Shown here: piece after piece, positions 25,874 to 49,440 of the stretch
Position numbering within the stretch: position 1 is the first letter of the stretch
Layout of the letters: each line of letters opens with the position of its first letter
From: Eubacteriales bacterium
Lineage (GTDB): Bacteria; Bacillota; Clostridia; Oscillospirales; QAKW01
Length of the DNA: 59,692 nucleotides
Reading direction: 5' to 3'
NCBI GenBank assembly: GCA_045545315.1
Contig: JAZQAR010000023.1
Location: forward strand, 1 to 59,692
Translations under genes and position numbers: made by a program
The notes under the pieces: generated by a model
Database searches by the model: none
The model's input: the letters and a program-made list of their open reading frames with translations, nothing else
What the model was told of the DNA's origin: nothing

Positions 25874-25902
25874 TGTGTCACGGGGACGGTTCTCTTGACA
25901 CA
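25874..25902 (+). repeat. REP-like hairpin TGTGTCACGGGGACGGTTCTCTTGACACA (GGGGACGGTTC family)
   Basis: It starts immediately after the TAA stop of the AraC gene. The arms TGTGTCA/TGACACA enclose the conserved core. Confidence 0.8.
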
Positions 25903-25941
25903 CTTTCGAAGTTATGATATCCTTACTACGAGGTGATAATT

Positions 25942-26682
25942 ATGCCAAGACAAGCCAGAATTAAAGGAAAAACCGGATATTACCACGTCCTTCTACGGGG
26001 CGTTGCCCGACAGAATATTTTTGAAAACGATCACGACCGATTAAAGTTCCTGGAATTACTCAAACGATACAAACAGGAACTTGGTTTCGGGTTGCCTGCC
26101 TATTGCCTGATGAGCAACCATATTCACTTACTGATCGAGGATCAAGAAGATCAATTGACGCTCATTATGAAAAAGCTCGCCGGCACCTATGCCTCCTATT
26201 ACAATTGGAAGTACGAACGGGTGGGACATCTGTTTCAAGATCGCTATAAAAGCGAGCCCATTGACGACGAGACTTATTTTCTTGCGGCTTTACGCTATAT
26301 TCACCAAAATCCGGTAAAGGCGCAGATCGCCTTTACCACCGATTACCGATGGAGCAGTTACCACGAGTATCTGCACAATCCCGAACTGGCTGATACCACT
26401 TTGGCGCTGGAATTACTGAACGGGCTAGCTGGGTTTAAAGAGTTTCATCTCGCAGAAGAACAGCAACCTTGTTTGGATTGTGAGGAACCCAGACGGATCA
26501 GTGACGAAAAAGCCACTATGCTGATTTGTGAATTATCCAATATAAAAAATCCGTTGCTTTTGCAAGAATTAGATCCCCCGCAAAGAAATGAAATCATACG
26601 TCTTTTAAAGGAGAAGGGGCTGACTGTACGACAAATAGCCAGGCTGACGGAAATCAACCGCGGCATTGTTACCCGGGCATAA
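25942..26682 (+). CDS. IS200/IS605-type Y1 HUH transposase of the REP-associated (RAYT-like) kind, with a C-terminal HTH
   Basis: ORF track 25933..26682. I chose the ATG at 25942, which lies 5 nt after GAGGTGA. Motifs seen:
- YHVLLRG;
- HUH motif in LMSNHIHLLIE;
- catalytic Tyr motif in ALRYIHQNPVKA;
- LFQDRYKSEPI;
- a C-terminal LTVRQIARLTEINRGIVTRA helix-turn-helix.

Cognate hairpins flank the gene on both sides. Confidence 0.8.
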   Translation: MPRQARIKGKTGYYHVLLRGVARQNIFENDHDRLKFLELLKRYKQELGFGLPAYCLMSNHIHLLIEDQEDQLTLIMKKLAGTYASYYNWKYERVGHLFQDRYKSEPIDDETYFLAALRYIHQNPVKAQIAFTTDYRWSSYHEYLHNPELADTTLALELLNGLAGFKEFHLAEEQQPCLDCEEPRRISDEKATMLICELSNIKNPLLLQELDPPQRNEIIRLLKEKGLTVRQIARLTEINRGIVTRA

Positions 26683-26711
26683 TGTGTCACAGGGACGGTT
26701 CTCTTGACACA
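26683..26711 (+). repeat. REP-like hairpin TGTGTCACAGGGACGGTTCTCTTGACACA
   Basis: It starts immediately after the TAA stop of the transposase gene, in the same orientation as 25874..25902. Its translation creates the spurious MCHRDGSLDT N-terminal extension in ORF 26682..27758. Confidence 0.8.
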
Positions 26712-26720
26712 AGGAGATTT

Positions 26721-49271: not shown

Positions 49272-49292
49272 TGTATATCCTATTCTGTTCTC

Positions 49293-49327
49293 CCATAAAA
49301 TCAGCCCCCGAGGAAAACCTCGGGGGC
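49293..49327 (-). terminator. Rho-independent terminator between the M24 peptidase operon and the RHS gene
   Basis: GCCCCCGAGG, loop TTTT, then CCTCGGGGGC on the minus strand, followed by TGATTTTAT. It ends only about 20 nt upstream of the listed RHS start. Confidence 0.6.
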
Positions 49328-49359
49328 TACTATTTAAGTGAACAAAAAATTACAGAAGA

Positions 49360-49440
49360 CAGGCTCTCTATTTTGATCGCATTAAATTTCAGTTAGGATC
49401 GGTCGAAGACAAGGAACCGTCCCCTGTCTTACGCAAAAAT
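49360..49440 (-). pseudogene. Relic of the 3' end of a fourth immunity-like gene, located upstream of the RHS gene
   Basis: The minus strand reads ...RKFLRKTGDGSLSSTDPN, then a stop (stop codon at complement 49389..49391). It is followed by the conserved AATTTAATGCGATCAAAATAGAGAGCCTG that trails all three intact paralogs. There is no gene body. It contains the hairpin 49406..49430. Confidence 0.6.

Follow-up and report, generated by a model that had tools for sequence, protein, structure and literature searches.

A contig of 59,692 nucleotides from a Eubacteriales bacterium (GenBank assembly GCA_045545315.1, contig JAZQAR010000023.1), hereafter called the window, poses the question of why one short DNA hairpin lies beside a Y1 (HUH) tyrosine transposase gene and again at the junctions between toxin and immunity-like genes in an RHS island. 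The host is a gut Clostridia-like bacterium. The hairpins are a repeat family of the repetitive extragenic palindrome (REP) or terminal inverted repeat (TIR) type that belongs to the Y1 transposase gene at 25942-26682; gene and repeats together form a unit of the kind called a REPtron or TIRtron. In the island the same hairpins form the ends of longer junction modules, which appear to have been copied between junctions and to have given the neighbouring immunity-like genes their 3' ends.

The core of the hairpin, GGGGACGGTTC, occurs exactly ten times in the window, against 0.03 expected from dinucleotide-preserving shuffles: on the plus strand at 25882, 41116 and 42372, and on the minus strand at 27812, 41273, 41367, 42532, 42582, 42603 and 49414. 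Two one-mismatch matches that also form a hairpin (26691, plus; 42720, minus) and one degenerate copy (40181, minus), which has two core mismatches and retains its arms, bring the total to 13 recognisable hairpins, three around the transposase gene and ten in the RHS island. A one-mismatch match at 54157 is armless and was rejected as a chance match. When the window was scanned with a structure filter that allowed up to three core mismatches and required at least five Watson-Crick arm pairs, no further copies were found above the shuffle expectation of 3.3.

Three arm classes occur in the window: TGTGTCA(c)/TGACACA (class 1), (G)AAGACA/TGTCTT(T) (class 2) and (A)ACACA/TGTG(T/C)T (class 3). Covariation between them was measured in an alignment of 27 copies, drawn from the window and 12 other loci, in which the outer 7-bp helix was 82.5% paired, compared with 54.7% in column shuffles, a level reached by none of 500 shuffles, and the covariation score was 0.72 versus 0.25. 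Pairing fell to 26-48% when the partner was slid by one to three columns, and two of the stem pairs alternate between A-T and C-G (16:11) with no unpaired case. Folded as single-stranded DNA, the copies reach -4.2 to -5.8 kcal/mol. The general layout is an outer stem of variable sequence, 5-8 bp long, then an inner extension formed by GGGG and a pyrimidine run, and the loop ACGGT; in class-2 and TGTCAA-type copies it is the GGGG of the core that pairs with pyrimidines 3' of the core, leaving ACGGT as the loop. An earlier description of this DNA, made from the sequence alone (the preliminary description), had listed 13 copies with a constant core and covarying arms. Every copy was found where it had been placed and the covariation test bears out the pairing; its first two arm classes hold as given, while the third is better written as (A)ACACA..TGTG(T/C)T.

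The family extends beyond this contig. A degenerate class-2/3 pattern search retrieved seven IMG/VR loci, with copies dispersed between genes, that add arm variants such as CGAACA/TGTTTG, GGCACA/TGTGTT and AACA/TGTT, among others. Scans of viral contigs with the class-1 hairpin, the exact class-2 hairpin and the D1 module spacer (see below) returned no matches, and an Rfam search of 25-50 kb of the window in evalue mode found no relevant family. Several copies are partial and in tandem: the repeat breaks after GGGGACGG or 1-2 nt past the core and then restarts at the 5' arm. Such copies were located in the window at 42601-42620 and in the tail of one immunity-like gene (41384-41400), in a contig of the metagenome X1 (at window position 41271), and in loci L022 (2106-2190), L029 (10899-10925) and L003 (1-60). 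Either nicking at a specific site or slippage at the hairpin would leave such copies.

The protein encoded at 25942-26682 (plus strand, 246 aa) is a Y1 transposase of the RAYT/TIRYT type. It carries an HUH motif (SNHIHLL), a RAYT-type tyrosine (YIHQNP, in a YxxxNP context), a Pfam Y1_Tnp match (2.9e-15) and a C-terminal helix-turn-helix (HTH); the C-terminal helical domain gives weak HTH_5 and sigma-70 r4-like matches at residues ~216-246. Against the NCBIfam equivalog NF047646 (REP_Tyr_transpos, REP-associated tyrosine transposase) it scores 64.5 bits, under the cut-off of 80, and by this measure it is related to the proteobacterial REP-associated transposases without being their equivalog. 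Its AlphaFold2 model (pLDDT 88) is closest in the Protein Data Bank (PDB) to 4ER8_A, the Escherichia coli TnpA-REP bound to a REP hairpin (E 1.1e-7, TM 0.71 on the target), followed by the IS608 and ISDra2 transposases; a PDB sequence search with the transposase gave no matches. Homologues number in the thousands, the nearest being from uncultured Clostridia in gut samples, and some are named RayT by their source. By motifs, Pfam match and predicted fold, the protein fits the RAYT/TnpA-REP branch.

The tie between repeat and transposase was examined in other genomes by fetching the DNA around five homologues of the window protein. The same core, GGGGACGGTTC, flanks the transposase gene at every fetched orthologue, from 84 down to 49% identity. 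At 84% identity (L001), TGACAA-GGGGACGGTTC lies upstream on the plus strand and downstream on the minus strand. One locus at 56% (L002) has its six copies gathered within 1.7 kb of the gene, the remaining 18 kb being free of them, and another at 56% (L030) has two plus-strand copies, upstream only. At 49% (L029, Acetobacterium wieringae VSLA01000002.1), one plus-strand copy is upstream and two minus-strand copies are downstream. Inverted flanking, with plus-strand copies upstream and minus-strand copies downstream, is seen in L001, L002 and L029, and across the orthologue loci the copies usually follow this order and cluster within 1-2 kb of the gene. In the loci with gene calls, 19 of 20 copies are intergenic; the exception, at L001:150, overlaps the beginning of a gene called as partial.

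The Acetobacterium locus provides further evidence, since it holds a second Y1 paralogue (gene 18094-18855) that is 39% identical to the first and 35% to the window protein. Around this paralogue the core takes a variant form, GGGGACGTTTC, present in four copies (16428, 17403, 18027 and 18887; arms AGACAA/TTGTCT), and the first paralogue retains GGGGACGGTTC. A core that is fixed across orthologues and changes with the paralogue is as expected if the protein recognises the core. The REP-like hairpin that the preliminary description had linked to the Y1 gene therefore has its counterpart at orthologues in five other genomes, and the paralogue has a variant of its own. One GGGGACGTTTC copy in the same locus comes after a HicAB toxin-antitoxin pair.

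In the window, the order is plus-strand copy upstream, plus-strand copy directly downstream of Y1, and minus-strand copy beyond the next gene. The first (25874-25902, class 1, TGTGTCA c GGGGACGGTTC tct TGACACA) ends 40 nt 5' of the Y1 start. The second (26683-26711, plus, class 1, core AGGGACGGTTC with one mismatch) lies between the Y1 stop and the ribosome-binding site of the following gene, and the third (27801-27831, minus, class 1) is distal to that gene. The latter, a lipoprotein-like gene with no family match (26721-27758, plus), is flanked by the hairpins at 26683 (plus) and 27801 (minus) and is possibly a passenger within the transposase unit. A minus-strand open reading frame (ORF) at 27798-29102 that would contain the third hairpin is probably spurious, because a consensus promoter precedes the plus-strand gene from 27897 and no family match was found for either ORF; with this ORF discounted, all three class-1 copies of the window are intergenic. 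A gene flanked by inverted copies of its repeat is, on sequence grounds, the REPtron/TIRtron arrangement.

A promoter-like site, TTGACA-17-TG-TATCCT (25895-25923), has as its -35 box the 3' arm of the 25874 hairpin, so the repeat overlaps the putative promoter of the transposase itself, and binding of a protein at the hairpin could auto-regulate it. Among the copies upstream of the transposase, those of four of the five orthologues show the same design, a 3' arm TTGACA, 17 nt, and a TG-extended -10 (TATCCT/TACAAT). Sites of this kind lie at ~165-195 in L001, ~9955-9985 in L002 and ~9985-10015 in L030.

Two described systems are close to this unit. TIRtrons comprise tyrosine transposases (TIRYT) with flanking inverted repeats that share GGGGWSAS, some of them self-complementary and some forming repeat families (Di Nocera, De Gregorio and Rocco 2013, PMC3733652). 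TIRYTs have been equated with TnpA-Y1 subclass 2.1, defined by Y1 plus a C-terminal HTH, and the extra domain of that subclass resembles the HTH families Bac_DnaA_C, HTH_23 and HTH_28; automatic and manual searches around subclass 2.1 genes gave no adjacent REP-like sequences (Quentin et al. 2018, PMC6006769). TIRtrons are probably equal to TnpA-Y1 subclass 2.1. For Group 1 RAYTs in Clostridia, only low-copy flanking 16-mers have been reported (Bertels et al., PMC5581495). The window unit resembles TIRtrons in its Y1/HUH protein, longer than classical RAYTs and with a putative C-terminal HTH, in the inverted copies beginning GGGG(A)(C) that flank the gene, and in being a moderately abundant family of singles, dimers and clusters. 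Its core, GGGGACGG(TTC), matches GGGGWSAS at seven of eight positions, with G instead of A at position 7; the counterpart in the Acetobacterium paralogue is GGGGACGT. It differs in that each copy is a hairpin with covarying arms, in its Clostridia-like host, and in a core kept across orthologues to 49% identity; moreover, no link between TIRtrons and toxin loci has been described.

With REP/RAYT REPtrons and REPINs (Nunvar 2010; Bertels and Rainey 2011, PMC3116915; Ton-Hoang 2012; 4ER8) the unit shares a single-copy Y1 transposase with its own flanking palindromic repeats. Like proteobacterial REPs, the copies are mostly intergenic near gene ends and form convergent doublets, and in the structural model the catalytic domain appears nearest in fold to TnpA-REP. 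Classical REPs carry GTAG or GTGG 0-2 nt 5' of a GC-rich conserved stem, with a 2-5 nt loop or a bulged long hairpin (PMC6006769). The window hairpins have no such tag (flanks aatGTGTCA, cgtAAGACA and gaaACACA), and it is their loop and inner stem that are conserved whereas the stems are AT-rich and variable; judged by its letters, the hairpin is not a classical GTAG-type REP. REPINs are pairs of inverted repeats a short distance apart that move as one unit and occur in many copies (PMC3116915); here the doublets in contigs of the metagenomes X3 and X7 have 12-14-nt spacers, and the pair formed by modules D3 and D1 spans 181 nt. The element is accordingly a hairpin-forming, loop-conserved member or variant of the REPtron/TIRtron kind.

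The RHS island, read on the minus strand, begins with a full-length RHS/YD-repeat toxin gene (43458-49271, 1937 aa; RHS_repeat 3e-128) whose Rhs core ends in DPLGL. The toxin domain that follows DPLGL is metallopeptidase-like, with HEYGH, and has a conserved tip, YYSQPWEYIADR / ...NYYSQPWEYIADRYGGV.... This C-terminal domain (43461-44198, minus) resembles a zinc metallopeptidase and has no Pfam family. Three immunity-like proteins, Imm1, Imm2 and Imm3, are paralogues that share 34-37% identity. Imm1 (42695-43519, minus), a lipoprotein with the lipobox LLTSC, adjoins the full-length toxin; Imm2 (41357-42280, minus) belongs to orphan cassette 2, and Imm3 (40156-41091, minus), predicted to be membrane-anchored, to orphan cassette 1. 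The membrane-anchored partners and the Imm1 lipobox suggest an extracytoplasmic target for the toxin.

Each orphan cassette starts with a relic of a toxin tip, namely the last 35-60 toxin codons; those before Imm2 and Imm3 are 52% and 49% identical to the main tip. Relic 1 (SSLPWEYVADLLGGV..., 41006-41107, minus) and relic 2 (LMGYLKNEQNYYSQPWEYIADRLG...HSF*, 42189-42371, minus) are cut off at the hairpins of modules D3a and D3b, respectively; both begin within about 10 nt of a hairpin. By its gene order the locus is an Rhs orphan toxin/immunity array, with the immunity role predicted. A profile search of 1.84 billion representatives detected 376 relatives of the immunity-like proteins; a word-index homologue search with Imm1 returned the self-match only, and exact-protein look-ups of Imm2 and Imm3 in other assemblies found none on record.

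The ten hairpins of the island are not independent; they are the outer ends of longer repeats. D1 is 117 nt long, with three copies that are 88-93% identical and a partial fourth at 49360-49432, D3 is 110 nt (two copies, 98% identical) and D4 is 94 nt (two copies, 97% identical). D1 and D4 share one plan, a hairpin, a 45-nt spacer (...AACTGAAAT..AATGCGATCAAAAT...) and an intrinsic terminator, and in an alignment of six units their homology starts exactly at the hairpin 5' arm. D4 is a diverged form of D1 whose two arms have changed in step, from AAGACA/TGTCTT to AACACA/TGTGCT. D3, read on the coding strand, consists of a distal terminator half, a promoter-like TTTACA-17-TG-TATGAT, a 25-nt leader and a reversed hairpin, after which the tip relic starts. 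Terminators were found in all D1 copies, and the region has nine terminator-like sites against 2.3 expected.

All of these modules lie on the minus strand of the island. At the distal end, D1a (40083-40199) comprises a degenerate hairpin (40173-40198, core AGGGACGGGTC), spacer and terminator (40101-40136), and it carries the last 13 codons and the stop of Imm3. D3a (41100-41209) has a class-2 hairpin with its core on the plus strand (41109-41135), a leader, a promoter-like site running from 41191 to 41163 and a half terminator. It forms a REPIN-like convergent pair of 181 nt with D1b (41175-41291; class-2 hairpin 41265-41289, spacer, terminator 41197-41224). Next to D1b, D4a (41291-41384; class-3 hairpin ACACA..TGTG at 41359-41384, spacer, truncated terminator) is joined to a class-2 copy truncated after GGGACGG, and it encodes the end of Imm2. 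The second junction repeats this layout, with D3b (42356-42465, 98% identical to D3a; hairpin 42365-42391, core on plus, leader, promoter-like site from 42447 to 42419) and D4b (42456-42549, 97% identical to D4a; class-3 hairpin 42524-42549, D4/D1 hybrid terminator). Between D4b and D1c lies a segment, 42574-42620, with a complete class-3 hairpin (42574-42598) and the tandem partial copy at 42601-42620, made of 5' arm, core and gg, which precedes the complete hairpin on the minus strand. D1c (42622-42738; hairpin 42712-42736 with core GGTGACGGTTC, spacer, terminator 42644-42671) carries the last 13 codons and the stop of Imm1. The partial D1 at 49360-49432 (hairpin 49406-49430) is non-coding, upstream of the RHS gene, and falls in a 227-nt segment (49350-49576) that varies between strains.

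Each junction thus reads, in order, immunity gene end, hairpin, spacer, terminator, promoter-like site, leader, hairpin, tip relic and next immunity gene. On the plus strand the two hairpins of a junction are convergent, plus then minus, like those around the transposase genes and around the lipoprotein gene at 26721-27758. Given this orientation, the hairpin pairs enclose the junction modules and not the cassettes. The modules are 88-98% identical in nucleotide sequence, and the cassettes between them are only ~35% identical as proteins. The 98%-identical D3 abuts toxin tips at two different codons.

At the other end of the modules, the hairpins are translated. Imm1 ends in KTGDGSLSSTDSD and Imm3 in KTRDGSPSSTDFN, with the stop codon five codons past the hairpin in both. 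Imm2 ends in KTRDGNTGDGSMC, which corresponds to one truncated and one complete hairpin copy, a class-2 copy cut after GGGACGG being joined to the complete class-3 copy of D4 to give KTRDG-NTGDGSMC, and its stop is two codons past the hairpin. Among 14 aligned relatives, 13 end 2-8 residues (median ~5) after '...W..QI..F(K/R)', the exception having a core-derived tail of its own, and the KT(G/R)DGS... continuation is found only in the three proteins of the window. The relatives end before the tail, so the tail and the stop of the immunity-like proteins come from D1 or D4. The codon at which the gene runs into the repeat is the same in all three, and the non-coding relic upstream of the RHS gene has ~20 nt of immunity-like sequence ahead of its hairpin. 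Both observations fit one original fusion that later spread, rather than three insertions. Derivation of the core from the toxin gene was considered and rejected, since the corresponding coding position in the full-length gene shows no similarity to it. The preliminary description had proposed that the hairpin encodes the tails of all three immunity-like proteins and sits at the truncation points of both tip relics, and in both respects it was right. Its view that a hairpin lies at every cassette junction needs restating: hairpins do lie at the ends of the homology blocks, and they are mostly duplicates of three modules.

Strains differ in this region, which is present in pieces in bovine and other gut metagenomes. 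A 1214-nt contig of X3 connects 42279 directly with 43576, a jump in register with the cassette period of 1296 nt, and lacks the Imm1 cassette; the main toxin domain (99% identical) continues into the last 30 codons of tip 2 and then into Imm2. Relative to the window, only the last ~30 toxin residues after PWEYIADR differ in this recombinant, so that the same toxin body is paired with Imm2. In X1, the Imm2 tail is missing D4 and has extra 20-nt partial hairpin units, GGAACCGTCCCCTGTCTTA(G/C), and the upstream segment 49350-49576 is replaced by 3 nt. That segment lies between an M24 peptidase gene and the RHS promoter region and contains, besides the D1 relic, two more strong hairpins. In X10, two D1 units come in succession after Imm1 and then a hairpin whose arms, CAATCA/TGATTG, form a new class. 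Both X3 and X7 have compact, REPIN-like convergent class-2 doublets with 12-14-nt spacers.

Similar coincidences occur at toxin/immunity loci of other organisms. In L003, a Logan contig with the homologue P0127 (~26% identical), the exception among the aligned relatives, GAACCATCCCC lies reversed directly before a tip relic, YEDYYSQPWEYGADLYG (the relic after the reversed core variant also being given as YYSQPWEYGADL). Its immunity homologue ends in ...VRTGDG* on GGGGACGGTTAG, with the one-mismatch variant GGGGACGGTTA at that end. In L025/L023, which come from another organism with a GC content of 0.40, six small ORFs lie behind an RHS gene. Here GGGGACGGTTA lies just 5' of the RHS gene, and GAACCGCCCCC lies ~25 nt before the relic YYSLPWEHLAD of the P0125 cassette. 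In this array, RHS gene included (L025 782-8278; L023, GCA_017473545.1 JAFUKQ010000286.1), the six ORFs encode small membrane proteins of at least four unrelated types. Repeated modules of a terminator and a TTGACA promoter lie between ORFs at 3972-4065 and 5924-6015. As read from its genes and spacers, this locus is a heterogeneous orphan array with its own junction module. Elsewhere, L028 has one copy, 2.5 kb away.

We favour, with moderate confidence, the reading that the hairpin-bounded modules are recombination substrates and expression punctuation that have been spread or homogenised between junctions. It builds on the family, the covariation, the transposase tie across genomes, the module structure, the foreign immunity tails and the strain variation at modules, all of which were observed, and it would make the hairpins causal break-points. 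The junction modules would have been copied or homogenised from one junction to another, and for that reason each immunity-like gene would run into a hairpin and each orphan tip would start at one. Once in place, the modules would terminate the transcript of one cassette and provide a new start for the orphan immunity gene that follows. They would also be portable stretches of homology whose break-points are hairpins, which would let the junction mosaic gain, lose and re-order units between strains, and whole cassettes may also be lost or exchanged by ordinary crossover in the conserved toxin tip. The joints themselves could be made by RecA acting on the 100-nt repeats, by replication slippage or template switching at the hairpins, or by Y1 nicking and joining.

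Several points weigh against this account. The hairpin-junction coincidences of the window represent about 3-5 independent origins and not ten, the further ones in L003 and L025 have degenerate cores, and the enrichment at RHS junctions was judged within the window. The promoter and terminator calls are consensus matches only. The strain data (X1, X3, X7 and X10) come from short assembled metagenome contigs, and assemblers can mis-join repeats; even so, the strain differences concentrate on hairpin-bearing modules. The X3 joint, as its sequence reads, is an in-register crossover in conserved toxin-tip coding sequence and not at a hairpin. Ten metagenomic loci found by a toxin-tip motif scan showed neither a core, with one mismatch allowed, nor an orphan cassette in the flanks that were available, although seven of the ten have a detectable immunity-like gene downstream, and the intact RHS/immunity locus L027 has no hairpin. 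The distant stand-alone, RHS-less immunity homologue L005 likewise has no core. A hairpin intrinsic to the toxin/immunity family is rejected by these core-free related loci, and the comparison indicates that lineages with this repeat family are those that show the hairpin at their cassette borders. The hairpin-directed recombination put forward in the preliminary description, and the strain comparison of cassette boundaries that it proposed, therefore come out divided: block ends fall at hairpins and strains differ at the hairpin modules, while the sole mappable cassette loss went through tip homology.

Four rival explanations were weighed. One of them, that one or two copies landed long ago 3' of an immunity gene and were then copied passively with the junction DNA, without any role, is unlikely. 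The homology of D1, D3 and D4 does reach far past the hairpin (94-117 nt), the same-codon entry of three immunity genes into D1/D4 fits one fusion event, related toxin loci lack the hairpin, and orphan arrays form without such hairpins in other systems (PMC5361080). Hitch-hiking, however, sits badly with the positions of the six block ends, four of them no more than 10 nt from the outer edge of a hairpin and two in the terminator hairpin, with the compensated arms of D1 versus D4, which imply that the stem was maintained through divergence, and with the strain differences concentrated on hairpin units. Modules of 88-98% identity beside cassettes of ~35% also require recent spread or homogenisation rather than ancient co-duplication. 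A second rival is enzymatic shuffling, the idea of the preliminary description: the Y1 enzyme would bind single-stranded hairpins, nick at or near the core and join hairpin-bounded segments, thereby inserting, excising or re-ordering cassettes or modules. The hairpins are indeed cognate repeats of this enzyme family, repeat-block ends fall at them, and the 98%-identical D3 meets tips at different codons, which calls for at least two separate joining events at the same element. The partial tandem copies (window, X1, L022, L029 and L003) look like a specific cut-and-join point, and a conserved loop on a variable stem resembles the marking of HUH nick sites. In rolling-circle replicons, the nick sites of HUH nucleases are marked by a conserved loop and a variable stem. 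We nevertheless consider enzymatic shuffling distinctly unlikely. Slippage or template switching at hairpins accounts equally well for the partial tandem copies, and the mapped cassette loss in X3 is a homologous crossover in coding sequence. Convergent plus-minus pairs enclose modules, the transposase gene and the lipoprotein gene, whereas the cassettes are bounded by divergent copies, and the 13.5 kb between transposase and island is not evidence that Y1 acts there. RAYT-type enzymes are, in addition, generally single-copy genes of low activity (PMC5581495). Its most specific form, an integron-like array of a Gram-positive RHS locus in which a TIRYT-type HUH/Y1 enzyme would cut and join loop-conserved hairpins as single-stranded DNA, with the modules as mobile joints, is very unlikely; structured sites do lie at the cassette boundaries, yet the tip truncation points differ and the mapped deletion is homologous.

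Two further explanations place the function in the transcript or in the protein. As an RNA element, the hairpin would stabilise mRNA before the terminator at immunity 3' ends and serve as a regulatory or processing site in the orphan 5' leaders. Its position 45 nt 5' of intrinsic terminators and ~25 nt 3' of promoter-like -10 boxes would suit such a role, as would the many copies in other contigs just 5' of ribosome-binding sites. Enterobacterial REPs are known to stabilise upstream mRNA, a precedent for the same function here. This explanation is nonetheless highly improbable: copies occur in both orientations relative to transcription, in the island and at the transposase genes, so that the core reads differently in RNA, the Rfam search gave no family match, and the tight association with a DNA transposase gene, whose paralogue has a core of its own, speaks for an element recognised at the DNA level. 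That KT(G/R)DGSxSSTD is a selected peptide, an immunity C-terminal sorting or degradation tag whose likeness at the DNA level is secondary, was considered and rejected as extremely improbable. The tail is in the same frame in all three genes, but the same DNA is non-coding, in both orientations, by the transposase and upstream of the RHS gene; the 14 aligned family members stop before the tail, save the one with a core-derived tail; homology runs 90 nt beyond the stop codon; and the residues past the hairpin vary (SD, FN, PN, SN) while the DNA stem is kept.

Relative to what has been described for toxin arrays, the favoured reading of modules as recombination substrates and expression punctuation combines familiar parts in a new way. 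As in the orphan arrays of Rhs, contact-dependent inhibition (CDI) and type VI secretion (T6SS) systems, a full-length toxin is followed by orphan cassettes of a 3' remnant and an immunity gene (Jackson 2009; Koskiniemi 2014; Kirchberger 2017, PMC5361080). The Rhs/T6SS displacement models likewise invoke exchange by homologous recombination in conserved toxin sequence (PMC5361080), as in X3. The locus differs from those arrays in that its orphans keep only the last 35-60 toxin codons and not the core-tip boundary, and in that its junction is a terminator/promoter module bounded by transposase-type hairpins that rewrite immunity C-termini. In the neisserial intergenic mosaic elements with dRS3 and in minimal mobile elements, REP-like repeats alternate with 50-150-bp spacers, flank exchangeable cassettes and serve recombination. 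The junctions here may be comparable, but repeat, host and enzyme association all differ; dRS3 corresponds to CGTC-1 REPs (PMC3733652).

The preliminary description had called the link between REP-like hairpins and RHS loci undescribed. Our literature search agrees, giving no paper that links REP/RAYT elements with RHS cassette junctions and finding the core sequence only in incidental matches such as primers. REP/TIR families with a cognate Y1 transposase, orphan toxin/immunity arrays, REP-mediated rearrangements and intragenic REPs are all already known. What is new, with no description found, is a hairpin-forming, core-conserved repeat for an HTH-bearing Y1 branch common in Clostridia, with a paralogue-specific core, and the building of this repeat into RHS-array terminator/promoter modules that write immunity C-termini. 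A concrete repeat can thereby be assigned to a large, poorly understood, domesticated-type Y1 branch with a C-terminal HTH, and the conservation of the core together with its change in the paralogue makes enzyme-DNA recognition directly testable. In polymorphic-toxin junctions, these repeats rewrite immunity C-termini, adjoin terminators and promoter-like sites, and coincide with strain differences. A portable junction bounded by hairpins is a candidate answer to how orphan immunity arrays are assembled beyond simple homologous recombination, and if the hairpins are passive, the locus is still a clean case of REP-type elements donating coding sequence.

Outside the transposase unit and the RHS island, the window contains three very large neighbouring genes on the minus strand (899-19520), encoding proteins of 2920, 1293 and 1736 aa. 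They have PASTA repeats and at least one endonuclease/exonuclease/phosphatase domain, with SLH in the two smaller ones. These proteins look like cell-surface nucleases and point to a host of Gram-positive type or one that bears an S-layer.

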